Source of the DNA: a virus | Reading direction: 5' to 3' (one strand) | Virus record (IMG/VR): IMGVR_UViG_3300028585_000007 | DNA: 44,116 bases | In this document: piece after piece, positions 8,569 to 31,885 of the stretch | Numbering within the stretch: the stretch's first letter is position 1 | Layout of the letters: every line of letters begins with the position of its first letter | The notes under the pieces: model-generated | Seen by the model: only the letters and a program-made list of their open reading frames with translations | What the model was told of the DNA's origin: nothing | Databases searched by the model: none | Program-made: the position numbers and the translations under genes

Positions 8569-8576
8569 ACCTGTAC

Positions 8577-8606: not shown

Positions 8607-8611
8607 AGATT

Positions 8612-10101: not shown

Positions 10102-10130
10102 TAGCCTCCCTCTGCGGTGGCGTAACCATC

Positions 10131-10304: not shown

Positions 10305-10522
10305 TGCAAGGCACCGACACCGCCACTGACCTGCCGTCCATCAAGGACGCGCCGAACCGCCCGACTCACGCGATGCTCAAGGTGGGCAAGTCCGTGATCA
10401 AGACGAAGATCGACTGGGAGGCGTACGACCCCAAGAAGCCGGACCGGTTCACGGTGTGGGGCTTCAACAAGAAGTACGACGTCAGCCGCGCTCGCATCAC
10501 CTTCTGCAAGAAGATCAAGTGA
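10304..10522 (+). CDS. Hypothetical protein (72 aa)
   Basis: ATG 10304 overlaps TAA 10302-10304. Confidence 0.55.
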   Translation: MQGTDTATDLPSIKDAPNRPTHAMLKVGKSVIKTKIDWEAYDPKKPDRFTVWGFNKKYDVSRARITFCKKIK

Positions 10523-10911: not shown

Positions 10912-11027
10912 GGGCTGGTTCAACTGCTACTGCGGTCGCGTACACCCTTTGTCCTGGTTGGGGCGCACCGTGCCGTCCCACGAGCAGACTCTCAAATCCC
11001 AATCCCACACAATCAAGGAGATAAACC

Positions 11028-12056
11028 GTGCCAAAGAAAACCCCGGGTCCAGTCCTGCTCCCAGCGATCCCGCTGGTGAAGGACAACGTCCAACGTCTGC
11101 CTGAGTTCGCAGGGGAGGGCGGCACTCAGATCGTGTCGTACTCCGAGCTGGACTCGTACCGGCAGTGCCCGCTCAAGCACATGCTCTCGTACAAGGAGCG
11201 ATGGAAGAAACCGGTGGTCGAGGGTTCGCCCCTCCGACGCGGTTCGCTCTGGCACCTCGTGATGGAGGAGCACTACGGCGTGATCATGGCGTCGTACCCC
11301 AACGGTCGCGACCCGATCCCCGACTACCAGGTCGACCTGGTGCTGGAGAACGCCTGGGAGAAGATCAAGCCCCTGCTGTTCGACCCCCAGACCGGCAACC
11401 AGTCCCCCGACCAAGAACTCATCCAGTGGATGTACGAGGGTTACGTGGAGAAGTGGGGGGTGGACAACGACTGGCGCATCGTCGCAATCGAGTACGCCTT
11501 CGAGGTCCCACTGCCCGACAACCAGGGCCAGGTTTCGCGCTACATCCTAAAGGGCAAGATCGACATCATCGCCCAGTCCCGCGAGAACGGCGGTCTGTGG
11601 ATCTGGGACCACAAGTCGGGCAAGGACCTGCCGACCGCCATGGCCCTCGAAATCGACGACCAGTTCGGTGGCTACACCTACGCGCTGAACACCCTCGGCT
11701 ACAAGGTTCGCGGCTCGATGCACAACGCAGCGCGCACGACCCAGAACAAGGGCGACCTCCCCGGAGCGATCATCAAGGGCGCGGTCAAGAAGCAGACCCT
11801 CGAACAGCGCATGGGCCGGACCTTCCTCAACCGCACCGCGCGGGAGGCGCAGAACCTGGCCCAGGACGCGTGGGCGGTCGCGAGCAACGCGTACCCGGAG
11901 CCGGGGGCCGAACTCCCGCTGTACTCGTCGCCGGACGCCCGGTCGTGCGGGTGGAAGTGCGACTACAAGGAGATCCACATCATCGCGCGCCAGGGTCGGG
12001 ACATCCACGAACTCATGGACGAGTACGGGTTCTCCCAGGACTTCACGAGGCACTGA
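11028..12056 (+). CDS. Cas4/RecB-family PD-(D/E)XK exonuclease with Fe-S cysteines
   Basis: N-terminal QCPLKH Cys plus C-terminal CGWKCDY; IWDHKSGKD nuclease core; AAGGAG lies 7 nt upstream of GTG 11028. Confidence 0.8.
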   Translation: MPKKTPGPVLLPAIPLVKDNVQRLPEFAGEGGTQIVSYSELDSYRQCPLKHMLSYKERWKKPVVEGSPLRRGSLWHLVMEEHYGVIMASYPNGRDPIPDYQVDLVLENAWEKIKPLLFDPQTGNQSPDQELIQWMYEGYVEKWGVDNDWRIVAIEYAFEVPLPDNQGQVSRYILKGKIDIIAQSRENGGLWIWDHKSGKDLPTAMALEIDDQFGGYTYALNTLGYKVRGSMHNAARTTQNKGDLPGAIIKGAVKKQTLEQRMGRTFLNRTAREAQNLAQDAWAVASNAYPEPGAELPLYSSPDARSCGWKCDYKEIHIIARQGRDIHELMDEYGFSQDFTRH

Positions 12057-12307
12057 TGAGTCTCGCTACGAAGTTGGCGCTGAAAGACGCGATCCAAGCC
12101 CACCTGGCCGACGAGGTACCCGGTGCCCAGCTCGCGGAGTACGTCATCCAGGCGACTCACACGGACGGCACCGCCGACACGGTGGGCGCGGTCGCGTACT
12201 GGCGGGACGTGGACGCCGCCACGTTCCACTCGGTCCTCGGAATAGTGACCTACGCTTACGTGAGCGTCTCGACCGCAGCAGCGAGGAATGAGGGCTACGG
12301 TGATTAA
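12056..12307 (+). CDS. Hypothetical protein (83 aa)
   Basis: ATG 12056 overlaps TGA 12054-12056. Confidence 0.55.
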   Translation: MSLATKLALKDAIQAHLADEVPGAQLAEYVIQATHTDGTADTVGAVAYWRDVDAATFHSVLGIVTYAYVSVSTAAARNEGYGD

Positions 12308-12533
12308 GTACATCGCGGTGACGGTCTCGCACACCGGCACGACCCCGCCCAACGTGGTCCGCACCATGGCTTACGCCGAGGCCAAGCAACAGGCCAAGCG
12401 GGAGCACGCACTACTGTTGACTGACGCTGACGCGGCGAAGTCCGCCACAGTGGAGAGAATCCCTTTCATGCCGGGCGTCTCGCAAGTCACAAGCTTCACC
12501 TACGAGATTGAGATTGAGGATGGGGAAGCGTAA
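12288..12533 (+). CDS. Hypothetical protein (81 aa)
   Basis: Track ORF; 20-nt overlap with the upstream gene. Confidence 0.55.
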   Translation: MRATVIKYIAVTVSHTGTTPPNVVRTMAYAEAKQQAKREHALLLTDADAAKSATVERIPFMPGVSQVTSFTYEIEIEDGEA

Positions 12534-12681
12534 CCCGTTCTGGGTGACGTCTCATCGTGAGCGCGGGCGTGACCTGCACACGTGGCACTGCCGCCTCTGC
12601 CCCCGGCGCAAGGGCGGCTACCTCACTCAGTCCGAGGCTAACCTGAAAGCCAAGTCTCACTTCCGCTTCTCGCATCGCTGA
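12520..12681 (+). CDS. Small basic protein (53 aa), not in the ORF track
   Basis: Hand translation gives MGKRNPFWVTSHRERGRDLHTWHCRLCPRRKGGYLTQSEANLKAKSHFRFSHR. It overlaps the upstream stop and ends just before a hairpin. Confidence 0.45.
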   Translation: MGKRNPFWVTSHRERGRDLHTWHCRLCPRRKGGYLTQSEANLKAKSHFRFSHR

Positions 12682-12684
12682 ACT

Positions 12685-12738
12685 GGCGCGCGCCCCAACC
12701 CCTATGGTATACTAGCCGTAGGGCGCGGGGCGCGCGCC
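12685..12738 (+). terminator. Long hairpin with an extended -10 (TGGTATACT 12705-12713) inside its loop
   Basis: GGCGCGCGCCCC (12685-12696) pairs perfectly with GGGGCGCGCGCC (12727-12738), followed by TTT. Confidence 0.55.
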
Positions 12739-12756
12739 TTTAGAGTTAGGACAGCC

Positions 12757-12945
12757 ATGAGCAACACCAGCTACACCACGCACGAGAAGTCAGCGAGAGA
12801 GATACACGTCCTCCCGGTGGCGGATCTCATGGTCCACGAAGAAACCGAGGACTGCATCTGCGGTCCCCTGGTGCAAGTGGGTCCCGAAGGGGTGGTCGTC
12901 GGTCACCGCTCGCTCGACGGGCGAGAAGTACTTGACAAGCACTAA
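12757..12945 (+). CDS. Hypothetical protein (62 aa, HEETEDCICGP motif)
   Basis: Track ORF preceded by GTTAGGACAGCC. Confidence 0.6.
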   Translation: MSNTSYTTHEKSAREIHVLPVADLMVHEETEDCICGPLVQVGPEGVVVGHRSLDGREVLDKH

Positions 12946-12961
12946 CCCCGCATGATATACT
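12932..12961 (+). promoter_or_regulatory. Promoter (class GTACTTGACA)
   Basis: TTGACA 12932-12937 (inside the 3' end of the previous CDS), 18-nt spacer, TGA-TATACT ending at 12961. Confidence 0.7.
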
Positions 12962-12996
12962 AGTACTATCCCGCCCGATCCAGCAGAGGAAGATAT

Positions 12997-13968
12997 ATGC
13001 CAAAAGCCGCACCGACCGGGGACAAGACCCCGGCCAAGACCAAGAACGCCCAGCTCGAACTGGGAGGCGTGGAGTCCACGGCCTCCAGCCAGGACCTGTT
13101 CGGGGACATGGAAGACGTCGTCGAGTACGTCCGCGCCCTGTTCTACGGACAAGAGGGGTCGGGTAAGACCACCGCCGCTCTGCTCATGACCAAGTACGGC
13201 AAGGTGCTGGTGGTCGACGCTGAGGGTGGCCTCAAGAAGAAGGCCCTCGCGTCGCAGGGCGTGGACCTCAGCCTGGTCCGCACGTGGCCCCCCAAGGGTA
13301 CTGCGGTCACGGCAGGCGGACTCGACAAGGTGTACGACACCCTCAAGGCGGACCTCGAGAAGGACCCCGAGTCGTGGGCCGGGATCGTCATCGACTCCGC
13401 CACCGACACGGTTCAGGCGCTCACCGCCCAGGTGTCGAACAAGCGCATCGAGCGCAACCGCAATAAGGGTGCCGAAATCGAAGAGGTCGACGAGTACTTC
13501 ACTGATGTCGCCGACTACGGCACCATGTCGAAGATGTTCGTGGACAAGCTCCGCAAGTTCCGCGACCTGCCGCTCCACGTGGTCTACACGGCCCTGGAGC
13601 GCCGCGACGTCGACAAGAACACGAGTGAGGTGAGCTTCGGTCCCGCCGTCACGCCGGGTGTCGCGACTCCGCTCCTCGGCTACGTCGACATCGTGATGCA
13701 TTTCTCGGCGGACGACGGCGACGCCCCGTTCCGCTCGATCAGCAAGCAGTCGGGCAAGTACCGGACCAAGGACCGGTTCGGCACCCTGCCTCGTGTGCTG
13801 GCCTACCCGACGATGCCTCGCATCATCGACTACATCGAGTGCAACCTCGACGCAGCCACCGATCCGCTGCAAAAAGAACTTCCCGCTCCTCGGACGGGCA
13901 AGAAGAAAAAGGCGTCAGCCGACGACGCCCAGGTCGAGGAAACCACCCCGACCGACGCCACCGCCTGA
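12997..13968 (+). CDS. RecA-fold AAA ATPase (Sak4-like recombination/annealing ATPase)
   Basis: Walker A GQEGSGKTT, Walker B GIVIDSAT; followed by an SSB-like gene. Confidence 0.75.
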   Translation: MPKAAPTGDKTPAKTKNAQLELGGVESTASSQDLFGDMEDVVEYVRALFYGQEGSGKTTAALLMTKYGKVLVVDAEGGLKKKALASQGVDLSLVRTWPPKGTAVTAGGLDKVYDTLKADLEKDPESWAGIVIDSATDTVQALTAQVSNKRIERNRNKGAEIEEVDEYFTDVADYGTMSKMFVDKLRKFRDLPLHVVYTALERRDVDKNTSEVSFGPAVTPGVATPLLGYVDIVMHFSADDGDAPFRSISKQSGKYRTKDRFGTLPRVLAYPTMPRIIDYIECNLDAATDPLQKELPAPRTGKKKKASADDAQVEETTPTDATA

Positions 13969-13995
13969 TCCAGGCAACGAACAGAGAGAACCAGA

Positions 13996-14514
13996 ATGCC
14001 CAAGCTCAGCAAGAAGCTCACCAAGTCCGTCGCCAAGGCCGAGGCCCTCCAGGGGTTCAGCCTCATCGAGCCCGGCAAGTACTTCGCCAAGCTCAAAGAC
14101 GTCGAGGTCCGCGAGACGAACGCGGGCGGCACGATGTGGGTCGCGGTGTGGCACGACATCCGCCACGTCAAGACCGGCAAGAAGGTCCCCGGCCAGCAGT
14201 GGCAGAACCTCAACCTGCCCATGGACACCATGCCCGAGGGCTACACCAAGGGCGAAGAGAAGTTCAAGCAGGCCCAGGACATCTCGGCGGGTCGTCTCAA
14301 GGCGTTCTTCGAGGCGCTCGGCTACGAGGTCGACAGCGACACCGACGAGATGATCGGTGAGGTCGCGGTCATCCAGATCGCGGTCCGCACGATCAGCTCC
14401 GGCTCGCGCCAGGGTGAGAAGGCCAACGAGGTCAACGGCGTCGAGTCGGCCGAGGAGTTCGGCGACATCCCCGAGTCGGACGACGACGAGGGCGACGCCG
14501 ACAGCGACTACTGA
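13996..14514 (+). CDS. ssDNA-binding protein candidate (DUF669-like) with an acidic C-terminal tail
   Basis: The C-terminus is ESDDDEGDADSDY; the position immediately after a Sak4-like ATPase is typical. Confidence 0.55.
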   Translation: MPKLSKKLTKSVAKAEALQGFSLIEPGKYFAKLKDVEVRETNAGGTMWVAVWHDIRHVKTGKKVPGQQWQNLNLPMDTMPEGYTKGEEKFKQAQDISAGRLKAFFEALGYEVDSDTDEMIGEVAVIQIAVRTISSGSRQGEKANEVNGVESAEEFGDIPESDDDEGDADSDY

Positions 14515-14542
14515 GCGCTGACTCAGTAACACAGTAACACCC

Positions 14543-14615
14543 GGGGTGGCTACCGGTCCCAGCGTCACTCGCCCATGTGGGCTTCACCACTGGCTGGCGA
14601 ACTGGTAGCCACCCC
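14543..14615 (+). promoter_or_regulatory. Long-range inverted repeat upstream of the primase gene
   Basis: GGGGTGGCTACC (14543-14554) and GGTAGCCACCCC (14604-14615), a perfect 12 bp with 49 nt between them; tandem CAGTAACA x2 at 14524-14539. Confidence 0.4.
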
Positions 14616-14644
14616 ATCCATGTACCATCCCGATCAGGAGTCCC

Positions 14645-17344
14645 ATGAAACTGAGCGCCTCAACCACAAGCCGACTGCGGTCGGCGGAGGCTCCCACCAC
14701 TCTCACAACTTCGATGCTCGACTCAGCCCTGTCCCTCGCGGAGCAGGGCTGGAATGTTTTCCCCCTGCGACCTGGATCCAAGGTACCGCTCCTCCCGCGC
14801 GCCCACCCCAAGGGTGAGAAGTGCAAGGGTGAGTGTGGACGGGACGGTCACGGTGCCTATGACGGCACGACGGACGTCGCGAAGATCAGGCGCTGGTGGA
14901 GCGAGAACCCGCAAGCGGGCGTCGGCGCTAACCTAGGAGAAGATCGTGTCGCATTCGACATCGATATCAATCACGGAGCACCCAATCTTGCGTCCTTTCC
15001 AGACACTCGTCGCCACCTATCTGGACGGGGCAACGGCAACCACCACAAGATCTACCGAGTCGAGCCTGGCACGGCTGGCGGAGCTATTCGACCAGCTGTC
15101 GGAAGCATGTCGTTCGTGGCAGGTATCGACATTCGAGCGGGCCGTGGATCCTACATCGTCATGCCCCCCAGCCTTCACGAGGAGACGCGCCGACCGTACA
15201 CCGCCGACGCCGTTCCCGAACACACCCTCACCGACGACGAGGTCGCTGCAATCTGGGCTGAGGCGGGTGTCGAGCAGTCGGCCACGTCTAGAGCTGCCGC
15301 CCGGGGACTCAGCATCGTGGGTGGTGCTTCACGGTCAGGTCCGGGCGGTACGGGCAAGCCTGGGCACCTCTCGTCTCTGCTCGCTGACCCCCCTGCGGAG
15401 GGGGGCCGCAATGAGTGGTTGGCTCGTGTCGCCGGGCACTACGCTAAGATTTACCGCGACAAGCGCGACCTTTACGACGCCCACGTGTATCAGGCAAACC
15501 AACTCCTCAGTCCGCCACTCCCAGACGAGGAATACTCCAAAACCCTAGAGTCGATCTGGGACACGGAGGTAGTTTCCCACCCCGAGCGTGGCGCATCGCT
15601 GGAGAACGGCTGGTTGGTCGGGAACAAGCGCACCCTGTTCTGCCAGATCGTGGTTCAGGAGGGCGAGGACAAGCGAACGGACCTGGCTCCGTGGGGCGAC
15701 TTCGACATCGAGGCACTGGGTGTCGCGGTGGATGAGGTGGACAACCGCATGTACTGGGTCAGGATCTACTGGCGCGACCGGGTCATGGACACCACGCTAG
15801 ACGCCTCCGTACTGGGGGACGACCGCGCGATCCGCAAGTGGCTGGCCTCCCGTGGTCCCACCTTCGACCCGCCGTTCCAGGCCGCGCCTAAGACGCCTCC
15901 GGGCGTGCGCCTGTCGCGGTACCTTGAGAGCCAGCGTCCGCCTCAGGTTTCCATCGTGGAGACGCTGGGCTGGCACGAGGACCTCAAGAAGTTTGTGACC
16001 CACGACGGCGGCATCACGCCGGACGGTCCGATCACCAAGGAGGAGGCGGAGGTGGTGGCCGACCCGAAGCTGGTCGAGCGCGACCTCGCCCCTTACACGT
16101 ACGGTTTCGCCAAGGACTGGGATGAGGCCCAGCGCGTATTGAATGAGGTGCTGTCATTCCAGGACACGACAATCACATCGATCTTCGGAGCCTGGTGGGC
16201 GGCTTGTTTGCTCAAGCCCCAGATCCAGGAGCGAACCTCTCTGTTCCCGTTCTTCGGAGTGGAAGCGACCTCGGAGTCCGGGAAGACGAATGGCTTCTTC
16301 GACCTGATGGTGGCGATGAACGGGAACACTCGCGGACAGATCGTCCCCACCCGCCCCGTCCTGCGAGACTACGCGTCGGCGAACAAGAACGGGATCGTGT
16401 GGGCGGACGACCTGGACGACCTCAGCGCCTACGGCGAGCTATTGCGCGCCTCCACCTCGAACGGCACGGCGTCGAAGATGGACATCGACCGGTCGGGGAT
16501 CAAGAACACGCAGGTGGTCGCGCCGATCCTGATCACGGGTGAAGCCCTTGGTATGAACTCGCAGAAGGCGCTGGCCGACCGGTCGGTGGTGGTGAACGTG
16601 CCGTCGCCTAAGGGTCGCAAGTCGGTGCACGGCAACTACCCTCAGTGGGATGACGTGCTCGACCTTCAAGCAAAGTACCCCCGCCACAATGGGGGACTCT
16701 CCCAGCTCGCGGGTCATTACGTGCAGGCCGCGCTCGGGTACCGCGACGAGGTCATGTCCGCGCTGAAAATGGCGAAGCGCCAGGGCAGCGGGCGGCACGC
16801 GGACAAGCTGGCGGTACTGCGGGCGGGCGCGTGCCTGCTGGACGCCCTCTGCGGTCACGACGGGGCGTGGGAGGGCCAGGGAGAACACTACGGGCGGGTG
16901 CAGGCGTGGGCGGAGGAGGACGGCGCGCAGTCGCTCGCAGCCGACAACGCCCTCACGCTCAAGATCTTGCCGTGGGCGTGCCAGATCTTCACTGGTGACA
17001 AGCCGGTCGAGCACACGATGGGCCGGTGGCAGGGAATTGATGCCCCGGTATTCGTACGCAAGACTAAGCGTCGCACCGACGGTGGGGAGGGTCTTTCTTC
17101 TCCTGACGAGCCGACACACGAGGTGTGGTTCAGCGTGCCGCTCCTGTCCCTGGCGTGGGCGCGGGATCACGCGAACCGGATCGAGGTCCGCACGGAGTCG
17201 AAGGACGCGTTGACGCAGCAGGCGACGGCGCTGGGTGTGGATCGCGGGAAGGCGGTTATGGTGTCGGGCACGGGTCGTCGTGGTTGGTACCGGCAGTTGC
17301 CTCCTGAGTACGCGAGGGTTGTGCTGGAGCGCGCGGGGGGTTAG
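14645..17344 (+). CDS. Bifunctional primase-polymerase (AEP N-terminal domain) fused to a P-loop helicase/NTPase
   Basis: AEQGWNVFPLRPGSKVP, AFDIDINHG and SGRGNGNHHKIY (AEP motifs); central SESGKTNGF Walker A and VWADDLDD Walker B. Confidence 0.85.
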   Translation: MKLSASTTSRLRSAEAPTTLTTSMLDSALSLAEQGWNVFPLRPGSKVPLLPRAHPKGEKCKGECGRDGHGAYDGTTDVAKIRRWWSENPQAGVGANLGEDRVAFDIDINHGAPNLASFPDTRRHLSGRGNGNHHKIYRVEPGTAGGAIRPAVGSMSFVAGIDIRAGRGSYIVMPPSLHEETRRPYTADAVPEHTLTDDEVAAIWAEAGVEQSATSRAAARGLSIVGGASRSGPGGTGKPGHLSSLLADPPAEGGRNEWLARVAGHYAKIYRDKRDLYDAHVYQANQLLSPPLPDEEYSKTLESIWDTEVVSHPERGASLENGWLVGNKRTLFCQIVVQEGEDKRTDLAPWGDFDIEALGVAVDEVDNRMYWVRIYWRDRVMDTTLDASVLGDDRAIRKWLASRGPTFDPPFQAAPKTPPGVRLSRYLESQRPPQVSIVETLGWHEDLKKFVTHDGGITPDGPITKEEAEVVADPKLVERDLAPYTYGFAKDWDEAQRVLNEVLSFQDTTITSIFGAWWAACLLKPQIQERTSLFPFFGVEATSESGKTNGFFDLMVAMNGNTRGQIVPTRPVLRDYASANKNGIVWADDLDDLSAYGELLRASTSNGTASKMDIDRSGIKNTQVVAPILITGEALGMNSQKALADRSVVVNVPSPKGRKSVHGNYPQWDDVLDLQAKYPRHNGGLSQLAGHYVQAALGYRDEVMSALKMAKRQGSGRHADKLAVLRAGACLLDALCGHDGAWEGQGEHYGRVQAWAEEDGAQSLAADNALTLKILPWACQIFTGDKPVEHTMGRWQGIDAPVFVRKTKRRTDGGEGLSSPDEPTHEVWFSVPLLSLAWARDHANRIEVRTESKDALTQQATALGVDRGKAVMVSGTGRRGWYRQLPPEYARVVLERAGG

Positions 17345-17582
17345 CGGCGCTACAGCGGGCGCGGTGCTGCAGTGGCTCGGGAGCTGGGAAACCAACTCTC
17401 GGGCCACAGTAGTATATACGGTATCTAGAGATCAACCTCTGATTCCAATTACCCCTCTCCCACGGGGTATGCAGCACCCTACTCAGCACTCTCCGGCAAC
17501 CGCCGCTGTATCGCTGCCAACATTACCTTACCCCCCAATCCCCCGGAACGACGGGATCTCATAAATCATCTTCAAAAACATA

Positions 17583-17609
17583 TACAGCACTACAGCACTA
17601 CAGCACTAC
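17583..17609. repeat. Tandem octamer TACAGCAC x3 (+TAC) next to an AT-rich patch
   Basis: tacagcac tacagcac tacagcac tac read directly; preceded by tcataaatcatcttcaaaaacatat. Confidence 0.9.
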
Positions 17610-17698
17610 CTACGGCCCCCCACGTACGCCCTGGCCCGGGTACGCTCACGGGCGTGCCCGCCCAACCCCTGCCGCTCCGGGGCGCTGCTGCACCCCTA

Positions 17699-17728
17699 TT
17701 GCGGTCCTCATAACCTATATGGTATACT
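17699..17728 (+). promoter_or_regulatory. Promoter (class CTTGCGG); leaderless start
   Basis: TTGCGG 17699-17704, 18-nt spacer, TGG-TATACT ending at 17728; ATG 17735. Confidence 0.65.
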
Positions 17729-17734
17729 CGTGGT

Positions 17735-17989
17735 ATGGCAGACTACACTACACCTTGGGACCGAATTGACGACCTTGAGTCGGCTACCACCAGTGAGATC
17801 CTCACGTCGGTCCGCAAGGTGTCCAACACCCTGAACTCGATGCGTAACAAGATCGACTACGCGAACCAGACTGAGGTTCATTCTCGGCTGGGCCTGCGGC
17901 AGATCGACGAGCACAACGTTCGCGTCGCTCAGTACCGGGCGGGGTTGGTGTACATCGCGGAAATGATCCGCGAGCTGCTCGCCCGCTAA
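17735..17989 (+). CDS. Hypothetical protein (84 aa)
   Basis: Track ORF; the stop overlaps the next ATG. Confidence 0.65.
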   Translation: MADYTTPWDRIDDLESATTSEILTSVRKVSNTLNSMRNKIDYANQTEVHSRLGLRQIDEHNVRVAQYRAGLVYIAEMIRELLAR

Positions 17990-18228
17990 TGCTTCACGCG
18001 AGCCGCAGGACCTACTACGCGGGGTGCCGTTGCCAGATGTGCGTAGATGCTCACGCTTACTACAAGCGTGCAATGCGCAAGCAGCGTCGCGAGCGGCTGG
18101 CGCGGGAGGTCCCTGACCACGTGCACGGCACGGTCAACGGGTACAATAACTACAACTGCCGGTGTGATCGTTGCCTTACCGCATACTCTGAGTTCTGCAG
18201 GTCGGACACACTTGCGCCGGAGTCCTGA
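17989..18228 (+). CDS. Small protein with repeated GC(R)C-x2-C zinc-knuckle-like motifs; probable DNA binding
   Basis: YYAGCRCQMCVDAHAYY and GYNNYNCRCDRCLTAY form two copies of the same motif. Confidence 0.6.
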   Translation: MLHASRRTYYAGCRCQMCVDAHAYYKRAMRKQRRERLAREVPDHVHGTVNGYNNYNCRCDRCLTAYSEFCRSDTLAPES

Positions 18229-18240
18229 GTGTGGTAGGCT
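18212..18240 (+). promoter_or_regulatory. Promoter (class CTTGCGC); leaderless start
   Basis: TTGCGC 18212-18217, 17-nt spacer, TGG-TAGGCT ending at 18240; ATG 18247. Confidence 0.6.
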
Positions 18241-18246
18241 AGGGGT

Positions 18247-18543
18247 ATGACAGTCCGCACGGTTCCCACCGCGCTCGTGTCGAAGCAGCACCCGAATGAG
18301 GCGCAGCTGAACCCCGAGTCGGTGGCAGCATTTGAAGCTCTCCAGAAGGACCCACACACGTGGGTTGTCTGGCAGAGCGGCTTTGCCCATCACAAGGCAA
18401 GCAAGGCGCAGGCCTACAACCTGCGTAACGGCAAGCGCCAGAAGCTCCTCACGGCTGGCCACGACCTGGAGTTCAAGGCTTGGAAGGATCCCGACACGGG
18501 TGACTACCAGGTGATCGCCCGGTTCGCAGGAGGCGACGAGTAG
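18247..18543 (+). CDS. Hypothetical protein (98 aa)
   Basis: Track ORF; the stop overlaps the polymerase GTG. Confidence 0.6.
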   Translation: MTVRTVPTALVSKQHPNEAQLNPESVAAFEALQKDPHTWVVWQSGFAHHKASKAQAYNLRNGKRQKLLTAGHDLEFKAWKDPDTGDYQVIARFAGGDE

Positions 18544-20714
18544 TGCCACTCCCGATCCAGGAAGCTCGTCGCACTGGCACCATCCTTCCGTCCGAGCTGC
18601 TTGAGGCGTACGTCCACGCGTGGAACATCGAGTCCCCCGTTGCCGTCGACACTGAGACTTCTGGTCTGTTTGTGGACGACGGCGCTCGCGTGTCCACGGT
18701 CTCGCTTGCGTTCGCTGACCCGCTGGGCGTCTGGGCCAATCTCTTCGAGGGTCGCAGCTGCGAGGGCGCACTCGACGGCTGGTTCACGTACCGAGTGGAG
18801 GAGGTGGCACCTGGCTACAGTGTCCCCGTCGCGTCGTTCGCTTGGCCCTTCGACCAGGGAGTATCCTTCACGGATAAGCCCGAGGACGATGGGTATGCCA
18901 CTATGTGGCCGGACGCCGAGAACCTCAGCCGCGAAGAGTGGGCGGCGCTGTTCGAGTTCCTGAGGCTAGCGGGCCAGGAGACTGGCTTGGTGTTCCACAA
19001 TGCCAAGTTCGACCTGCACATGCTTGAGGCGGGGACCCGTCGTTGGCCCGGCCTGGGGTGGGACCTCTCCCGCCTTGTGGTGGCGGACACGCAGAACACG
19101 GTCGCGTTGCTCTACCCCACACTGGCGCTGGTTTCCCGGATGGGCAAGCTGGCCCCTACTACTTCGCTCAAGCCGAACTCGGCTGCGTTCTGGGGTGAGG
19201 CTGAGACGGACGAGCAGAAGGTGATCAAGGATTACCTCCGACGCAAGAAGCTTCCGAACGGGCGCTGGGACCTGATGCCGTGGGATGTGATAGCGAAGTA
19301 CGCTGACCAGGACCCCCGACTCACCTTGCGCATCCACCTCCGCGCCGAGCATGACATCCAGCAGGGACTGGTTGGCACGTGGCTGACGGGCACCGGCAAT
19401 AAGTTGTCGATCCAGCAGGCGCTCGACCGTCGCCTCGACACGACGAAGTTCCTGTACCGGATGGAGCGGCGCGGGTTGCCGTTCGACACCCAGGGTGCGT
19501 TGGTCGCGTCGAAGGAGTTGCGGTACCGGTCGGCGCAGATCGAGGACCTGTTGCCGTTCTCCCCTGCTACACTTCCCCGGGCCAAGCAGTACTGGTTCGG
19601 GGACCGAGACGAGGGCAACTTGGGGTTCCCGCCTTACGCGGAGACTGACAAGGGTGCCCCTAAGGTCGACGGCACCGTCGTCGATTACATGGTGCGTGAC
19701 AACATTCCGGGAGCAAAGGAATGGAAAGATTTGCAGAAGCTCGCGACCGCCGACTCCAGGTGGTACGCGGGCTACGCCGACCTCGCAGGATCCGATGGGC
19801 GCTTGAGAACCTCAGTCCGGCAGAACGGGACAGTTTCTGGTCGGTTCTCCGTCGAGCGCGTGCAACTGCAGGCGATCCCCCAGAACTACAAGTTGTCTTC
19901 GTTTACCGTATTGGACGGCGTTCCTACTCCCCGCGCCTTGATTGGCTCAGGAATATCCTCTGGCTGGAAGATGTGGGAACTGGACTTGGCTCAAGCCGAA
20001 CTCCGGGTCGCCGCGATGTACGCCAAGTGCCAGACGATGCTGGACTTGATCGATCAAGGCGCAGATTTGCACGGCGAAACCGCCAAGCAGCTGTTCGACA
20101 TTTCCCCCGACGATCCTCGCTGGGATCAGATGCGGTCCGTCGCAAAGCGATCAAACTTCAGCCTCATCTTCGGTACGGGGTGGGAGACGTTGCAGGCGGC
20201 AATCGAAGAGCAAGTCGGTATCCGGTTGTCGGACGCGGAGGCCGAGTCGCTGGTACGCGACTGGAACAGGCTGTACCCCGAGTACAAGCGGGCGATCTAC
20301 GAAACCAAGGCAGTCGTGGAGCGGCGCATGCGTTCGCCCCAACATGGCCGTGGAGTGGGCTGGATCGACACGGTCAATGGCGAACGGCGCTGGTTCGTTC
20401 CCGGCGAGGACACGCACAAAGCCTTCAACCAGCGGGTCCAGCCCAACCTCGCCCAATTCGGGATCGACTGGTGGCTCAAGGTCGAGCGACGCCTAGTCAA
20501 GAAGTTCGGCGACGATCCGGTTACCCTGGACGGCGTGTACGTCGGCAGAGTGGGCATGGTTATGACCATCCATGACTCGATGGTTCTGCTTCTGCCGGAC
20601 ACGCCTGAGTCCCTCAAGATCGTCGAGCATGCTCAGAACACGGGTCGCAAGCTCTGGGCGAAGAGGTTTCCTGGGGTCCCTGGCGACATCGACGCCAAGC
20701 CCTGGAACAAGTAG
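18543..20714 (+). CDS. polA: Family A DNA polymerase with 3'-5' exonuclease and no 5' nuclease domain (DpoZ-type candidate)
   Basis: Exo motifs VAVDTETSGL, HNAKFDLHML, KYADQD. Polymerase motifs LDLAQAELRV (A), RSVAKRSNFSLIFG (B), IHDS (C). Confidence 0.9.
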   Translation: MPLPIQEARRTGTILPSELLEAYVHAWNIESPVAVDTETSGLFVDDGARVSTVSLAFADPLGVWANLFEGRSCEGALDGWFTYRVEEVAPGYSVPVASFAWPFDQGVSFTDKPEDDGYATMWPDAENLSREEWAALFEFLRLAGQETGLVFHNAKFDLHMLEAGTRRWPGLGWDLSRLVVADTQNTVALLYPTLALVSRMGKLAPTTSLKPNSAAFWGEAETDEQKVIKDYLRRKKLPNGRWDLMPWDVIAKYADQDPRLTLRIHLRAEHDIQQGLVGTWLTGTGNKLSIQQALDRRLDTTKFLYRMERRGLPFDTQGALVASKELRYRSAQIEDLLPFSPATLPRAKQYWFGDRDEGNLGFPPYAETDKGAPKVDGTVVDYMVRDNIPGAKEWKDLQKLATADSRWYAGYADLAGSDGRLRTSVRQNGTVSGRFSVERVQLQAIPQNYKLSSFTVLDGVPTPRALIGSGISSGWKMWELDLAQAELRVAAMYAKCQTMLDLIDQGADLHGETAKQLFDISPDDPRWDQMRSVAKRSNFSLIFGTGWETLQAAIEEQVGIRLSDAEAESLVRDWNRLYPEYKRAIYETKAVVERRMRSPQHGRGVGWIDTVNGERRWFVPGEDTHKAFNQRVQPNLAQFGIDWWLKVERRLVKKFGDDPVTLDGVYVGRVGMVMTIHDSMVLLLPDTPESLKIVEHAQNTGRKLWAKRFPGVPGDIDAKPWNK

Positions 20715-20746
20715 TCCCGCACCTGCGGGCACACTAAGGAGGAATA

Positions 20747-20872
20747 ATGGCAACAGCATTCAAGGTGACGGACGAGCTGGTCGAGGTGTTCACCGAGGCC
20801 TTCATCGCGTACGACGGCGGCGGGGACCCCGCGACCCGTGCCGGACTCGAAGCGGTGTCCGCCGCACTGTAA
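20747..20872 (+). CDS. Very small ORF (41 aa), not in the track
   Basis: TAAGGAGGA SD lies 5 nt upstream of ATG 20747; the peptide is MATAFKVTDELVEVFTEAFIAYDGGGDPATRAGLEAVSAAL. Confidence 0.5.
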   Translation: MATAFKVTDELVEVFTEAFIAYDGGGDPATRAGLEAVSAAL

Positions 20873-20879
20873 CCAGTAC

Positions 20880-20909
20880 TTGACAGTATACTAAATGGTA
20901 TGCTAGACT
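20880..20909 (+). promoter_or_regulatory. Promoter (class GTACTTGACA) for the PurA-like operon
   Basis: TTGACA 20880-20885, 18-nt spacer, TGC-TAGACT ending at 20909. Confidence 0.7.
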
Positions 20910-20916
20910 GGTCACA

Positions 20917-21034
20917 GGTCCGGAGGCGAGAGGTATCACGCACTGTCGATGTGGGAGCAAACTAGCGGCTGACGAGTCGCCGTCCCTGAATCCCCCCCAG
21001 ATAGAAGTTCGCAGGTTCGAACCCTGCCTGGACC
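20917..21034 (+). ncRNA. Non-canonical tRNA-like element in the 5' leader (acceptor-like stem, D-like hairpin, consensus T-arm)
   Basis: T-arm GCAGG-TTCGAAC-CCTGC at 21011-21027. The adjacent CTGGACC (21028-21034) pairs with GGTCCGG (20917-20923). The hairpin GCG-AGAGGTATCA-CGC lies at 20926-20941. The 118-nt length and the lack of an anticodon arm exclude a normal tRNA. Confidence 0.3.
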
Positions 21035-21069
21035 CCGATACCGCAGAGTGCGGATCAAGAAGGAGCAAA

Positions 21070-22185
21070 ATGAGTATCATCGACGTGGTCGCGGGAGCGG
21101 CCTTCGGTTCGGAGGGCAAGGGCCACATCACGGCCCAGCTCGTCAAGCGTCGCCTCCGCCAGGAGCAGCGCACGGTCGTCAACGTCCGTGTCGCCGGTCC
21201 GAACGCGGGGCACACGGTCATCGACGACCGGAACCAGGCGTTCGCGCTGCGATGCGTGCCGGTGGGTGCGGCAATCGCGGCTGAGGTCTGGCTGTACATC
21301 GCGCCCGGGTCGGAGGTCGAGCTGGAGGTCCTAGCGAAGGAGGTCCACGAGCTGCGCGAGGCTGGCCACGCGGTCGGTCGGCTGTACGTGTCCGGCGAGG
21401 CCACCCTGCTCGAAGATCACCACAAGCAGGAAGAGACCGACGCAGCACTGACGCAGCGCATCGGCTCGACCGGCAAGGGGATCGGCGCGGCTCGCGTGGA
21501 CCGGCTCATGCGGTCGGCCAAGCGCATCTGCGACGACCCCGCTGCGGTGGACTTCATCGAAGCCCTCGGCGCGACGGTCGTGGACGAGGCCGAGGCCAAC
21601 TGGCTGGTGTCGTGGGCGGAGACGCGCAACGCGGCGATCATCATCGAGGGCACGCAGGGTTACGGCCTGGGCCTGCACGCGGGGATGTACCCGACCACGA
21701 CCTCGTCGGACTGCCGCGGGATCGACTTCCTGGCCATGGCGGGCATCATGCCGTGGCACCGGGGCGTCACCGAGACGAACATCGTCCTGGTCGCAAGGGT
21801 CTTCCCCATCCGTGTGGCGGGCAATTCGGGTCCGCTCAAGAACGAGCGCACCTGGGACGAGCTGGGTCTGCCCGAGGAGCGCACGACCGTCACGCAGAAG
21901 ATCCGGCGCGTCGGTGAGTGGGACGGCGAACTCGTCGCCCGCGCGGTCAAGGCTAACGGCGGCGGTCAGCGCGGCATGAGCATGGTGAACGTGGGAATCG
22001 CCCTGACCATGGTCGACCAGAAGTTCCCGTTCATGAAGGACCGCACGTCGATCCGGCTCATGTTGAAGGAGGCGGAGCAGTCGGAGCTGAACGCGATGAC
22101 GAACTTCCTCAAGCAGGTCGAGTTCGAGTCCGGCGCGGAGGTCATGGCCATGACCACCGGCCCCAACCACATCATCTGGAGGTAA
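21070..22185 (+). CDS. purZ: Adenylosuccinate synthetase-family enzyme, short form (PurZ-type candidate)
   Basis: The P-loop reads GSEGKGH where PurA has GDEGKGK; GSTGKGIG and EGTQGYGL are conserved PurA-fold motifs; 371 aa. Confidence 0.8.
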   Translation: MSIIDVVAGAAFGSEGKGHITAQLVKRRLRQEQRTVVNVRVAGPNAGHTVIDDRNQAFALRCVPVGAAIAAEVWLYIAPGSEVELEVLAKEVHELREAGHAVGRLYVSGEATLLEDHHKQEETDAALTQRIGSTGKGIGAARVDRLMRSAKRICDDPAAVDFIEALGATVVDEAEANWLVSWAETRNAAIIIEGTQGYGLGLHAGMYPTTTSSDCRGIDFLAMAGIMPWHRGVTETNIVLVARVFPIRVAGNSGPLKNERTWDELGLPEERTTVTQKIRRVGEWDGELVARAVKANGGGQRGMSMVNVGIALTMVDQKFPFMKDRTSIRLMLKEAEQSELNAMTNFLKQVEFESGAEVMAMTTGPNHIIWR

Positions 22186-22187
22186 TC

Positions 22188-22814
22188 ATGGCTGGACACG
22201 AGAACGGCAGGGAATACTCCGTCGCACCCGAGCCGTTGGAGAACGCGGCTCAGACCCCGGGTTACCAACCGCCCGAGAAGATGTACACCCTGGCGGAGGC
22301 GATTTCGATCATCGACTCCCGCCCCGTCCCCGGCGTCGCTGAGGAAATGAACGAGCGTCGGGCCGACTGGGGTGCTCAAGCCTCCGCGAAGGGCCAGTTC
22401 ATCAAGACGGCTGAGCGTCTGCTCACCAGCCGTGATGAGTTCGACGCCCGTGACTCGGCGGCGGACATCGCGGACAGTCTGCGGTCGTGGTGGCTGGACG
22501 TCGCGTCGCAGGAGGTCGAGCCGCTCATCGCGAAGATGTTCGAGTACGGCGGCGTGGGTCGGTCGAGCGACCTGGTCGAAATCGGCAAGAAGATGGTGCG
22601 GCTCGGCGTCACGAGGCAGAAGTCCTTCGGCCCGAACGACGACCACACGTCGTACGCCGAGCTGGGCATCTACTTCTACATCGAGGGCAAAATGGCGCGC
22701 TGGTCGGCTGCAATCGCGGAGGGTCGGCCCGTCTCGGACGACACCCTCCTCGACATCGGCATCTACGTTCGCATGGTTCAGCGGATCCGTACGGTCGGGG
22801 GGTGGCCGGTATGA
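22188..22814 (+). CDS. Helical protein, possibly an all-alpha NTP pyrophosphohydrolase superfamily member (MazG/DUF1599-like; MazZ analogue candidate)
   Basis: The start is 2 nt after the PurA-like stop. The pattern RRADWG ... GKMARW ... DDTLLDIGIYVRMV resembles MazG-like helices; the assignment is weak. Confidence 0.35.
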   Translation: MAGHENGREYSVAPEPLENAAQTPGYQPPEKMYTLAEAISIIDSRPVPGVAEEMNERRADWGAQASAKGQFIKTAERLLTSRDEFDARDSAADIADSLRSWWLDVASQEVEPLIAKMFEYGGVGRSSDLVEIGKKMVRLGVTRQKSFGPNDDHTSYAELGIYFYIEGKMARWSAAIAEGRPVSDDTLLDIGIYVRMVQRIRTVGGWPV

Positions 22815-23161
22815 GTCCCTCCGCCGAAACCGACGCTGAGTACGAAGAGCGTCACCGCAAAGAGTGGAACGCCCGGTACAGCCGGGCACTCGCCCAAGCG
22901 CGCCAGAGCCAGGAGTTCCTCAAGCTGCTCCAGTCCAAGCTGATCGAGGACGACCTGGACATGCTCGCGGCCCAGAACTCGCGGGCGGTCATCCTGTCGG
23001 TTACCGATCGCCTGGACGACATGACGGTCAAGGAGGTCAAGACCATGGACGGTCGGCTGATGGACGAGTTGATCCGTCTGGAGGCGCGTCGCGACCTGAT
23101 CAACCTCACACGCGAGACGATGCGCAAACACTCGGGCGTGGGTGCCCCACTCACCGACTAG
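22811..23161 (+). CDS. Hypothetical coiled-coil protein (116 aa)
   Basis: ATGA overlap at 22811-22814. Confidence 0.55.
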   Translation: MSPSAETDAEYEERHRKEWNARYSRALAQARQSQEFLKLLQSKLIEDDLDMLAAQNSRAVILSVTDRLDDMTVKEVKTMDGRLMDELIRLEARRDLINLTRETMRKHSGVGAPLTD

Positions 23162-23221
23162 TCCGGGTTACGCCTACGTCGAGCGCAACGTGCGCACGAT
23201 GTCGGCAATCGGCGGCGTATA

Positions 23222-23230
23222 TGATATGCT
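23222..23230 (+). promoter_or_regulatory. Extended -10 element without a clear -35
   Basis: TGA-TATGCT. Confidence 0.4.
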
Positions 23231-23242
23231 GACGGACCAGAT

Positions 23243-23298
23243 AGTACACGACCACGGCGAAATCCTCCGCGAGGGGGGTTTCGCCGTGGATCTGTACT
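23243..23298 (+). promoter_or_regulatory. Long leader hairpin upstream of the dUTPase gene
   Basis: CCACGGCGAAA (23252-23262) pairs perfectly with TTTCGCCGTGG (23279-23289); the stem is extended by AGTACA / TGTACT; GGAGG SD follows. Confidence 0.55.
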
Positions 23299-23312
23299 GG
23301 AGGTACCGAAGC

Positions 23313-23792
23313 ATGGGTCACACACCAGACTACACATATCGAGAGATAAGGGCAAGAATGAGCGACGAAATCCTGATCGAGCTGCTGAACGCGGACGCGA
23401 CGTTCCCCACGCGCGGGTACGACGACGACGCGGGCATCGACCTGTACACCTCCACGGACATGTGGATCAATCCGGGTGACTCGGTGGACGTGCCGACCGC
23501 CGTCGCGATGCAGTTCCCGCCCTCGGTCTGGGGCATGCTGGTCGGTCGGTCCTCGACCCTCCGCAAGCACGACCTGCTGGTGAACACGGGGATCATCGAC
23601 ACCGGCTACCGGGGCGAGCTGTTCATCAACGTGCACAACCTGGGCAAGCGGGCGTTCAGCGTCCACAAGGGTATGCGCCTGGCTCAGATCATCCCGATGT
23701 CGAACCTCGCGCCGAAGCTCCCGATGCGCATGGTCGACTTCCTCGACGAGCACGAGCGCGGTGCGCACGGGTTCGGGTCCACTGGTGTTTGA
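23313..23792 (+). CDS. dut: Trimeric dUTPase
   Basis: All five motifs are present: AGIDLY, GRSST, GIIDTGYRGE, MRLAQI, RGAHGFGSTG. Start chosen at ATG 23313 after GGAGG; ATG 23359 is an alternative. Confidence 0.85.
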   Translation: MGHTPDYTYREIRARMSDEILIELLNADATFPTRGYDDDAGIDLYTSTDMWINPGDSVDVPTAVAMQFPPSVWGMLVGRSSTLRKHDLLVNTGIIDTGYRGELFINVHNLGKRAFSVHKGMRLAQIIPMSNLAPKLPMRMVDFLDEHERGAHGFGSTGV

Positions 23793-24146: not shown

Positions 24147-24626
24147 GTGGCTGACACCATCACCCCCGAGACCGAAGCCGAAGCCGTCGCGACCCCCGCG
24201 AAGGTCAAGGAGCCGATCAACCCCCAGGTCCCCGCCGAGTTCAAGAACGCCGAGTCCGGTCGCTACCTCCCCGGCAAGGACGCCGCCCACAAGTCGCAGG
24301 TCGCCAAGGCGATCGTCGCCGGTGGCAACCGCGACAAGCTCCTCGCCGAACTCGGGTCGGACAAGCTCCGCGAGGGCGCCCTCAAGCAGGTCGAGAACTT
24401 CTACCAGAAGATCGGCAGCAAGGGCACCGCCGGGTTCGTCAAGGTCAAGACCGACGAGTTCGAGGCCCGCAAGCTGCGCGGCGACGGCGGCGTCTGGTTC
24501 GACGGCGACAAGGGCTGGGAGCACGTCGCTTCCGACTCCAAGATCGCCAAGACCTTCGAGTCCCTCGCCGACCGTGACAAGGCCGTCGAGGCCGAGGCAG
24601 CCGCCAGCGAGGCCGACGCCAGCTGA
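24147..24626 (+). CDS. Hypothetical protein with a degenerate PGHDAR-type module (YLPGKDAAH); paralog family member 4
   Basis: GTG 24147 lies downstream of the promoter; aa 40-48 read YLPGKDAAH, followed by a helix similar to the other members. Confidence 0.6.
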   Translation: MADTITPETEAEAVATPAKVKEPINPQVPAEFKNAESGRYLPGKDAAHKSQVAKAIVAGGNRDKLLAELGSDKLREGALKQVENFYQKIGSKGTAGFVKVKTDEFEARKLRGDGGVWFDGDKGWEHVASDSKIAKTFESLADRDKAVEAEAAASEADAS

Positions 24627-25689: not shown

Positions 25690-25974
25690 TTAGTCGTTGT
25701 ACAGCTTGGACTGGATCCCTCGCACGACCATGCTGAGGTGTCGGCGCGTTGTGACGCTGGTCGAGTGCGGGAACAGAACCATCCAGGTGCCCTCGCCGGG
25801 CGCGTCGAGGTCGGGTTGGAAGATCGCTATGACTGTGCTGTACGAGGTGACCTGCAGCTGCTCGTAGTCGGCGTCGTCGGGCGTCATCCACTCTGCCCGT
25901 AGGTTACCCGCGTCGAACGGGATGTTCTTGCGGATCAGCTCGGGGACGTCGGACTGGTACACTTTGCCGGACAT
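25690..25974 (-). CDS. Hypothetical protein (94 aa); the only minus-strand gene
   Basis: ATG at 25974 is preceded by AAGGAGCAGTAC on the minus strand; the upstream extension of the track ORF covers its own promoter. Confidence 0.65.
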   Translation of the reverse strand: MSGKVYQSDVPELIRKNIPFDAGNLRAEWMTPDDADYEQLQVTSYSTVIAIFQPDLDAPGEGTWMVLFPHSTSVTTRRHLSMVVRGIQSKLYND

Positions 25975-26022
25975 GTACTGCTCCTTGTTGTCTGCGCGCG
26001 CCGTGTGCGCGCGTCTGCCACG

Positions 26023-26052
26023 AGTATACCACACATATTGCCCGTGCCGCAA
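26023..26052 (-). promoter_or_regulatory. Minus-strand promoter of the same family
   Basis: The reverse complement reads TTGCGG - 18 nt - TGG-TATACT; a leader hairpin GCGCGC/GCGCGC lies at 25994-26012. Confidence 0.65.
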
Positions 26053-26086
26053 GCAGGTCCACGACACGCCCGGGCTGCACGGGGAC

Positions 26087-26115
26087 TTGCGGACTCAGAG
26101 AGGGCGTGGTATACT
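26087..26115 (+). promoter_or_regulatory. Promoter divergent from the minus-strand one
   Basis: ACTTGCGG (-35 at 26087-26092), 17-nt spacer, TGG-TATACT ending at 26115; leader hairpin at 26127-26143. Confidence 0.65.
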
Positions 26116-26164
26116 AGTTGTAGACAGGGTGGAGGTACCGCCCGCAGAGAACCAGGAGCACACC

Positions 26165-26557
26165 ATGACTGAGAACACCGTCACCCTCGCCAACTGCAAG
26201 TGCGGCTGCAAGCAGCAGGTCGGAAGCGTCGACAGCTTCTACCGCCCCGGCCACGACGCCCGCCACGCTGGAGACGTCGCCCGCAGCATCCTCGACGACG
26301 GCGACCGCAAGCACCTCGACGCGCTCCCCACGGACGCACTCAAGGCCAAGTCCGAGGCCCTCGCGGTGAAGTGGATGACCGCCGCCGAGGCCAAGGCCGC
26401 GAAGAAGGCCGAACGCGAGGCAGCCAAGGTCGCCAAGGAGGCCGAGGCCAAGGGCGAGCAGCCCGAGGCCCCCAACAAGACCCGCGCCCGCCGCGAGCTG
26501 GCGAGCATGAAGGAGCGGTCCGAGAAGGCAGCTGAGAAGGCCGGTGCGACCAAGTGA
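26165..26557 (+). CDS. CxCxC-PGHDAR protein with an Ala/Lys/Glu-rich tail (paralog family member 1)
   Basis: C11-K-C-G-C...FYRPGHDARH (aa 26-34); the tail is AAEAKAAKKAEREAAKVAKEAEAK. Confidence 0.7.
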   Translation: MTENTVTLANCKCGCKQQVGSVDSFYRPGHDARHAGDVARSILDDGDRKHLDALPTDALKAKSEALAVKWMTAAEAKAAKKAEREAAKVAKEAEAKGEQPEAPNKTRARRELASMKERSEKAAEKAGATK

Positions 26558-31870: not shown

Positions 31871-31885
31871 CGAAAGGAGGCCGCG

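Follow-up and report, generated by a model that had tools for sequence, protein, structure and literature searches.

A predicted PurZ0-type 2-aminoadenine DNA module in an uncultured actinobacterial phage, and domain X, a conserved family linked to purZ0

IMG/VR virus record IMGVR_UViG_3300028585_000007 (44,116 nucleotides; this whole stretch of DNA is referred to below as the window) contains a block of genes on the + strand, between positions 18543 and 23792, which encodes a family A DNA polymerase (DpoZ), a PurA-fold enzyme (PurZ0), a helical protein of 208 amino acids (aa), a 116-aa protein and a homologue of trimeric dUTPases (Dut). The block very probably serves the DNA chemistry of a Z-genome phage of the PurZ0 type, in this case an uncultured actinobacterial phage. 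A preliminary description of the sequence had read it as a 2-aminoadenine (Z) module and had proposed that the phage probably replaces A with Z in its DNA; this is supported by the scores of curated PurZ and DpoZ models, by diagnostic residues and by clade placement, from which we infer the enzymatic activities and the presence of Z in virion DNA. Three of the five open reading frames (ORFs) described in the block can be named by Pfam, PHROGs and NCBIfam, namely the polymerase, the PurA-fold protein and the dUTPase. The Z module is already well described as a system, and the window is a divergent addition to it (≤55% identity) whose value is confirmatory. The new part is a purZ0-linked domain, here called domain X, at the C-terminus of the 208-aa protein.

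The PurA-fold protein is a predicted PurZ0-type N6-succino-2-amino-2′-deoxyadenylate synthase (21070–22185, + strand; 371 aa). It matches Pfam Adenylsucc_synt (1e-35) and phrog_1211 (9e-89), and its score of 345.1 bits passes the cutoff of 300 of the curated NCBI PurZ model NF038379. All PurA equivalog models are failed, the best of them reaching 187.9 bits against a cutoff of 368. The preliminary description of a PurA-fold enzyme of this length with an altered P-loop is borne out by the sequence: the P-loop reads FGSEGKGH, compared with WGDEGKGK in Escherichia coli PurA, and the motifs GSTGKGIG and EGTQGYGL are kept. The alignment with PurZ and PurA proteins that had been proposed as a check places Ser in the position of the catalytic Asp13. 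Residues F12, S14 and T272 align with F12, S14 and T262 of PhiVC8 PurZ, which lie around dGMP's 2-amino group (PMC12884076; bioRxiv 2025.10.22.683976), and the corresponding E. coli columns hold W, D and G. A TTVT segment and a TMVD pocket are also found. When PDB entries are ranked, the highest score belongs to 7VF6 (276 bits, E 3.6e-81), the PurZ0 of Gordonia phage Archimedes (PMC12884076), followed by archaeal PurA (115 bits), PhiVC8 PurZ (6FM1; 103 bits) and S-2L PurZ (7ODX; 74 bits), with bacterial PurA structures scoring below the last of these. In tblastn searches of GenBank phages, PurZ0 phages match over the full length at 45–54% identity, and phages with ATP-type PurZ match at ≤35% identity over 76% of the length.

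The subtype is also reflected in the pocket for the NTP base, which reads LTMVDQ in the window, LSMADQ in Archimedes and LNFCNY in PhiVC8. M314, D316 and Q317 of the window enzyme stand where PhiVC8 PurZ has the adenine-stacking F295, followed by N297 and the likewise stacking Y298. The LTMVDQ segment was likened to the guanine-binding TKLD of E. coli PurA (K331/D333) by motif inspection, since the E. coli row was misplaced by MAFFT at the pocket. This pocket, together with the grouping among PurZ0 proteins, suggests that the window enzyme is of the PurZ0 subtype with a GTP-type pocket and should use GTP rather than ATP as co-substrate, as PurZ0 reportedly does. ATP had been named as co-substrate in the assay put forward in the preliminary description; a pocket that resembles that of Archimedes and is devoid of F295 and Y298 points to GTP instead. 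In one study (PMC12884076), the preferences of the two enzyme types, PurZ0 and PurZ, for ATP and GTP are stated in an order opposite to that suggested by the pocket residues, which is probably a slip of wording.

The polymerase (18543–20714, + strand; 723 aa; Pfam DNA_pol_A, 3e-28) is a Klenow-like family A enzyme with a proofreading exonuclease and falls inside the Wayne-like DpoZ group, the clade placement that remained to be made for it. It passes NF038381, the model for Wayne-like DpoZ, with 843.5 bits against a cutoff of 350, and fails the PhiVC8-like model NF038380, with 39.3 bits against 500. The Wayne-like subfamily, typified by the DpoZ of phage Wayne (PMC10201439), is called DpoZ-1 in PMC12884076, and the NCBIfam name of NF038381 is phage_DpoZ_2. 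The exonuclease motifs Exo I (DTETSGL), Exo II (NAKFD) and Exo III (YADQD) and motifs A, B and C are all intact. With Exo I beginning near residue 36, no room is left for a 5′ nuclease domain, in agreement with the architecture first described. Motif B reads RSVAKRSNFSLIFG (NFSLIFG), with Phe at position B4, as in the polymerases of Wayne, Parvaparticeps and Archimedes; Phe at this position (Tyr766 in Klenow) is unique to both DpoZ clusters (PMC10201439). The window polymerase is 53–55% identical to those of Arthrobacter PurZ0 phages (53% to that of Wayne), 52% to that of Parvaparticeps and 45% to those of Microbacterium phages. Every other listed phage PolA has approximately 30% identity or less and ≤88 bits, so that, among the matches listed, close relatives of the polymerase are confined to PurZ0 phages.

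The last gene of the block lies downstream of purZ0 and encodes a homologue of the DutZ clade of trimeric dUTPases (23358–23792, + strand; 144 aa; Pfam dUTPase, 5e-26), predicted to be a dATP/dGTP/dUTP diphosphatase. It was at first regarded as a canonical trimeric dUTPase, and the five dUTPase motifs are indeed present (DAGIDL, GRSS, GIIDTGYRGE, RLAQ and RGAHGFGSTG), but the protein is no bystander. Its score on the canonical dut equivalog (93.2 bits) is below the cutoff of 103, and it is 45% identical to the characterised DutZ of Ghobes. In a small neighbour-joining tree of 10 PurZ0-linked Duts, the window protein among them, and five Duts of non-Z phages, the PurZ0-linked proteins are monophyletic with 92.5% bootstrap support, and a WGxxxGRSS(T/A)xRK signature is common to their clade. 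The DutZ enzymes of Ghobes and Wayne hydrolyse dATP, dGTP and dUTP (Poubanne et al., PMC12884076). In the same study, dutZ is found in 98 of 98 PurZ0 genomes and dmtZ in 85 of the 98, being missing in 13, and Arthrobacter PurZ0 phages are described as adding DUF5664-1, with an activity similar to that of DutZ.

No match to an HD-domain (YfbR-like) DatZ is found among the 28 window ORFs scanned, in agreement with the preliminary description, which had left the exclusion of dATP as an open question. Because the window Dut belongs to the DutZ clade and members of this clade hydrolyse dATP (PMC12884076), DutZ would largely answer how dATP is excluded without DatZ. A tblastn search of the whole window with Ghobes DmtZ gives nothing at E ≤ 0.1, and no NDT Pfam match occurs in the ORFs scanned; the window belongs to the minority of PurZ0 phages without DmtZ. 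Two starts are available to the dut gene, ATG at 23358 (144 aa) and GTG at 23142 (216 aa), and the real one is probably ATG 23358, since GC content at third codon positions (GC3) drops to 0.68 in the 216-nt 5′ extension, compared with 0.92 in the Dut core, and the gene caller of another assembly took the 144-aa form. The 196 nt between the 116-aa ORF and the Dut core (23162–23357; GC 0.57, GC3 0.68), which include TATATGATATGCT, are probably an intergenic region that may hold an internal promoter, and not extra N-terminal coding sequence of Dut.

Taken together, the named proteins would form the following pathway. DutZ (23358–23792) would hydrolyse dATP to dAMP, thereby removing the competitor, and dGTP to dGMP as well. 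PurZ0 would then convert dGMP and aspartate to dSMP with GTP as phosphate donor, host PurB and host kinases would carry dSMP to dZTP, and the Wayne-like DpoZ, its proofreading active, would replicate the genome with Z opposite T. Since the window lacks DmtZ, the branch from dAMP to adenine and Z salvage would be absent. The order of genes in the window, from the primase-polymerase through DpoZ, PurZ0, the gene in the next slot and a small ORF to Dut, is that of Wayne, and from DpoZ onward it is also that of Parvaparticeps. A PurB-like adenylosuccinate lyase (Lyase_1) is encoded near purZ0 in some phages that bear domain X, such as that of locus L010 (3421–4608) and Archimedes (78–1175), and such phages are therefore predicted to bring their own dSMP-to-dZMP step.

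The slot directly after purZ0 is occupied in the window by the 208-aa ORF, which starts at 22188, two bases past the purZ stop codon ending at 22185, and whose product is predicted to be all-helical. Its N-terminal half (22188–22469, + strand) is variable and lineage-specific, with helices in the AlphaFold2 (AF2) model at a predicted local distance difference test score (pLDDT) of approximately 70–79; a single metagenomic homologue covers it, and no relatives are found in phages or among approximately 100 PurZ0 modules. Conservation is limited to the C-terminal ~110 aa, domain X (22470–22814, + strand), for which AF2 gives a confident four-helix bundle (pLDDT 85, predicted template modelling score 0.73). 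An exhaustive profile search places at least 882 representative clusters in the family at E ≤ 0.001. In 198 sequences, 36 positions of domain X are ≥90% conserved, including W101, W102, E109, K116, E119, Y120, D128, E158, K168, R171, D184 and D185, and further D189, Y193, R199, R201, W206 and P207. The invariant charged residues are E109, E119, D128, E158, D184, D185 and D189 together with K116, K168, R171, R199 and R201. The N- and C-terminal extensions of X proteins vary widely. The gene after purZ0 is labelled ‘hypothetical’ in every record examined, and no description of domain X was found in the searchable literature. Two surveys of Z-DNA systems, PMC12884076 and metaGPA (bioRxiv 2025.10.22.683976), could not have detected X, because both are Pfam-based and X matches no Pfam model.

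The linkage of domain X to PurZ0 is as tight as that of DutZ. Among the best-scoring 80 of 347 PurZ0-type loci in IMG/VR, a partly redundant set, the slot directly after purZ0 holds X in 66 and DUF5664, a known dATP/dGTP pyrophosphohydrolase, in 14; none of the 80 has both and none has neither. Clustering at 60% identity sorts the 66 X domains into 18 groups, and in 48 of 63 loci an overlap of 1 or 4 nt exists between the purZ0 stop and the closest start available to X. When IMG/VR loci are seeded with X instead, all 24 have the order PurZ0, X, DmtZ where present, and Dut, with PurZ0 directly upstream of X in each of the 22 that have enough upstream sequence. The 136 PurZ0-type matches in GenBank divide cleanly by host: X is present in all 31 non-Arthrobacter PurZ0 phages (18 Microbacterium, 6 Gordonia, 5 Streptomyces, 1 Curtobacterium and 1 Micrococcus) and in 0 of the 105 Arthrobacter ones. 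Cultured phages carrying X include Ghobes, Archimedes, Theresita and Hiyaa. In four representative clusters, a PurZ with the Ser-type P-loop and X are joined in a single ORF; the two of these that were checked in context lie on phage contigs, where Dut is a neighbour and an NDT gene may or may not be present.

What X does can be approached through the slot that it fills. In phages with ATP-type PurZ, the gene between purZ and datZ always encodes MazZ-1 or MazZ-2, which are dGTP diphosphohydrolases that cannot be related to each other by BLAST (PMC8342488), and the layout of PhiVC8 agrees with a MazZ gene adjoining purZ. Together with DUF5664-1, these proteins suggest that the slot next to purZ has been filled repeatedly by different pyrophosphohydrolases that produce dGMP. 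The position of X in this slot, its complementarity with DUF5664, its fusions to PurZ0 and its enzyme-like conservation on a helical bundle lead us, tentatively, to favour X as another pyrophosphohydrolase, one that works in complex with PurZ0. Stated in full, and held a little more loosely, the proposal is that X may be an unrecognised and near-universal part of the PurZ0 pathway, a new family of (d)NTP pyrophosphohydrolases that displaces DUF5664-1 and MazZ non-orthologously, works in a physical complex with PurZ0 and directs dGMP to the synthesis of dSMP. The 208-aa protein would be made right after PurZ0, and its domain X, as the functional counterpart of DUF5664-1 and MazZ, would act as an all-alpha (d)NTP pyrophosphohydrolase, or at least as a stoichiometric PurZ0 partner, delivering dGMP to PurZ0.

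Several observations count against this proposal. Of the features noted early on for the 208-aa protein, its position two nucleotides after the purZ stop and its helices stand, and the MazG/DUF1599-like C-terminal pattern is unsubstantiated, since none of 26 X family members matches any Pfam model even at E ≤ 10. No PHROG or NCBIfam model matches X either, and nothing is found when the X profile is compared with PDB sequences. Foldseek finds nothing significant in the PDB for the full-length 208-aa model, and its BFVD matches are to the X family itself only. With the domain alone, the PDB match is the MazG-like protein DR2231, at a non-significant E of 2.4 (probability 0.41, template modelling score 0.42); the same protein recurs, again non-significantly, in searches with both models. 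The acidic residues of X depart from the classic EExxE...ExxD spacing of MazG. The possibility that X is a divergent DUF5664 (PF18909) was rejected, as the hhalign probability is 0.09 for the full-length comparison and 0.17 for the domain-only one, which used alignments of 197 and 119 sequences; under permissive settings, EYGG can be paired with HYGxGA and RW..EGRxVSDDT with RH..WxGEDxDxET, but without statistical support. Ghobes carries an X homologue as well (gp51), yet its DutZ alone provides hydrolysis of both dATP and dGTP, and a second pyrophosphatase may therefore be redundant. The counts of IMG/VR loci come from the best-scoring and partly redundant sample described above. For the module in general, Z is read as A by sequencing, which makes the substitution itself invisible in sequence data. 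PhiVC8 p26 (MazZ-2), which has no Pfam match of its own, was also compared with X and is unrelated to it (hidden Markov model score 2.3).

The fusions to PurZ and the overlapping start and stop codons would also be expected of complex subunits if, as the main rival reading has it, X were a non-catalytic partner of PurZ0, that is, a structural, assembly or regulatory subunit and not a nucleotide hydrolase, which might for example stabilise the PurZ0 dimer, tune its use of GTP or anchor the enzyme to host PurB or the replisome. X has no detectable link to a hydrolase family, hydrolysis of dATP and dGTP in Ghobes is already covered by DutZ (PMC12884076), and the invariant WW and GGWP aromatics of X could form an interface. 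Such a role nevertheless appears somewhat unlikely, because X is strictly complementary with an enzyme, DUF5664-1, because the equivalent slot in ATP-type PurZ phages is filled by the enzymes MazZ-1 or MazZ-2, and because at least 12 charged residues are invariant across the 198 sequences, a pattern that is more like that of an active site.

X could also act outside the known pathway, as an inhibitor of a host enzyme (PurA, dGTPase or polymerase), in the handling of dZMP or dZDP, or as an anti-defence gene that travels with purZ0. The absence of a recognisable fold family, the highly variable N- and C-terminal extensions and the lack of a characterisation of Ghobes gp51 in the study by which DutZ and DmtZ were assigned are all compatible with this, but the idea is improbable, as one would not expect a passenger gene to follow purZ0 directly in all of 66 loci, to be fused to it in four clusters or to stand in exact complementarity with DUF5664. 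Finally, the block could be an ordinary cluster for nucleotide metabolism and replication (a PurA-type auxiliary gene, a dUTPase and a PolA) in a phage with canonical A-containing DNA, given that all three named proteins come from superfamilies common in phages with normal DNA and that the dUTPase keeps all five canonical motifs, but this is hardly credible when the PurA equivalog models fail, the PurZ model passes and the DpoZ model passes by a wide margin, the catalytic Asp13 is replaced by Ser, the sole close relatives of the polymerase are the DpoZ of PurZ0 phages, and the genes of the module are ordered as in Z-phages that have been studied by experiment.

The window indicates that in actinophages the minimal set can consist of DpoZ, PurZ0, X and DutZ and do without DmtZ, DatZ or MazZ. 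The function that we propose for X would have wider consequences. If X is a supplier of dGMP or an obligate subunit of PurZ0, the model of the PurZ0 pathway would be completed and the restriction of DUF5664-1 to Arthrobacter phages would be explained; it could also matter for the engineering of Z-DNA synthesis in heterologous hosts.

The remaining parts of the block are small. A perfect GC-rich hairpin (CCCGCA CC TGCGGG; 20716–20729) lies directly past the polymerase stop and is followed by AAGGAGG and a 41-aa ORF; it is not a classic terminator, since it has no T-run on the + strand. The 41-aa ORF (20747–20872, + strand) has this AAGGAGG as a strong ribosome-binding site and a GC3 of 0.81, is lineage-specific, and has no relatives in phages or among the approximately 100 PurZ0 modules. 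Next comes a sigma-70-like promoter candidate identified by sequence match (20880–20909, + strand), with TTGACA and TAGACT separated by 18 nt and an extended TG. The block had been credited with its own consensus promoter here, and the site does exist, but one such site found in 6.9 kb compared with 0.7 expected by chance makes the match statistically unremarkable; the one point in its favour is that it lies in a non-coding gap. The leader of approximately 160 nt between the promoter-like site and purZ0 (20910–21069) includes GGTTCGAACCCTGCC, similar to the T-arm of a tRNA. The idea of a tRNA-like GGTTCGAACCC element here was considered and discarded, as ARAGORN reports no tRNA in the window and Rfam gives no match. 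The 116-aa ORF (22811–23161, + strand) is present after the 208-aa protein as originally noted, overlaps the stop of the X gene by 4 nt and has a coding-like GC3 of 0.85. It encodes a helical ORFan without a match in Pfam, PHROG or NCBIfam, without a phage homologue and without a relative in the approximately 100 PurZ0 modules.

Upstream of the block, a primase-polymerase of the Prim-Pol/PriCT type (14645–17344, + strand; 899 aa) matches Pfam Prim-Pol (2e-25) and PriCT_1 (1.5e-9) as well as phrog_5177 (1154 bits), and occupies the same relative place as gp45 of Arthrobacter phage Wayne. The five ORFs of the block, for DpoZ, PurZ0, the X-protein, the 116-aa protein and the dUTPase, are present in the window at the positions first assigned to them. 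Elsewhere in the window, none of DmtZ, DatZ, MazG, DUF550 or PurB is found. Replication genes extend over approximately 6457–20714 and structural genes over approximately 30338–43016, and the window is essentially a whole phage genome. A comparison over 20.6 kb with an ENA metagenome contig of 44,130 bp gives 100% identity, and the same genes are called in other assemblies of this genome. Two ENA samples yield assemblies of it, 44,130 and 43,309 bp long and with differing start points, and a 2,024-bp fragment (99.8% identity) occurs in a third. Together, these assemblies suggest a genome of approximately 44 kb that is circularly permuted or terminally redundant and recurs across samples. A megablast search for whole-DNA relatives returns short purZ0 segments only (72–78% identity), so no named phage is close at the DNA level. 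Three further ORFs, at 8612–9214 (in its C-terminus), 24147–24626 and 25922–26557, have in common a segment of approximately 35–50 aa centred on (F/Y)xPG(H/K)DA(R/A)H. These segments are 33–44% identical in pairwise comparisons (E 1e-4 to 1e-5), have no Pfam match, and also match the C-terminus of Ghobes gp47 and a 193-aa protein of Parvaparticeps.

Compared with the known systems, the window module follows the same logic as those of S-2L and PhiVC8, which consist of datZ, mazZ and purZ with or without a PhiVC8-like DpoZ. The logic in common is a synthase derived from PurA in which Ser replaces Asp13, an adjoining supplier of dGMP, the removal of dATP and a Z-preferring PolA (PMC8342488). The parts differ: S-2L and PhiVC8 have an ATP-type PurZ (F295/Y298), an HD-domain DatZ, a MazG-fold MazZ-1 or MazZ-2 and a PolA of another subfamily, none of which occurs in the window.

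Arthrobacter phage Wayne (Korravirus) encodes a primase-polymerase, DpoZ, PurZ0, DUF5664-1, a small ORF and DmtZ-DutZ, in the same overall order as the window, and its DpoZ and PurZ0 are 53% and 49% identical to those of the window, respectively. The protein that follows PurZ0 is built alike in both, with a variable N-terminal part and a C-terminal domain of approximately 100 aa, but the slot holds DUF5664-1 (PF18909) in Wayne and X in the window, and the two are not detectably homologous. Dut is fused to DmtZ in Wayne and stands alone in the window. In the Gordonia phages Ghobes and Archimedes, the cluster comprises PurZ0, gp51, gp52, DmtZ, gp54 and DutZ. It resembles the window in its PurZ0 (45–49% identical), in the X-protein gp51 right after PurZ0 and in a Dut of the DutZ clade. 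Both DutZ and DmtZ of Ghobes have been characterised biochemically, and the latter has no counterpart in the window. Unlike the window, these phages have lysin B and other genes between the polymerase and purZ0, and Archimedes has a PurB-like lyase.

The closest sequenced relative of the window module is that of Curtobacterium phage Parvaparticeps (MZ357096), a module known from sequence. Both consist of the polymerase, a small ORF, PurZ0, the X-protein, a further small ORF and Dut, and both are without DmtZ. They differ in their small ORFs, which are unrelated, and in the X protein, which in Parvaparticeps is 300 aa long with an unrelated N-terminal part. The polymerase (52%), PurZ0 (54%) and Dut (49%) are, like all window proteins, at most 55% identical to their Parvaparticeps counterparts, the exception being domain X, at 76% identity.

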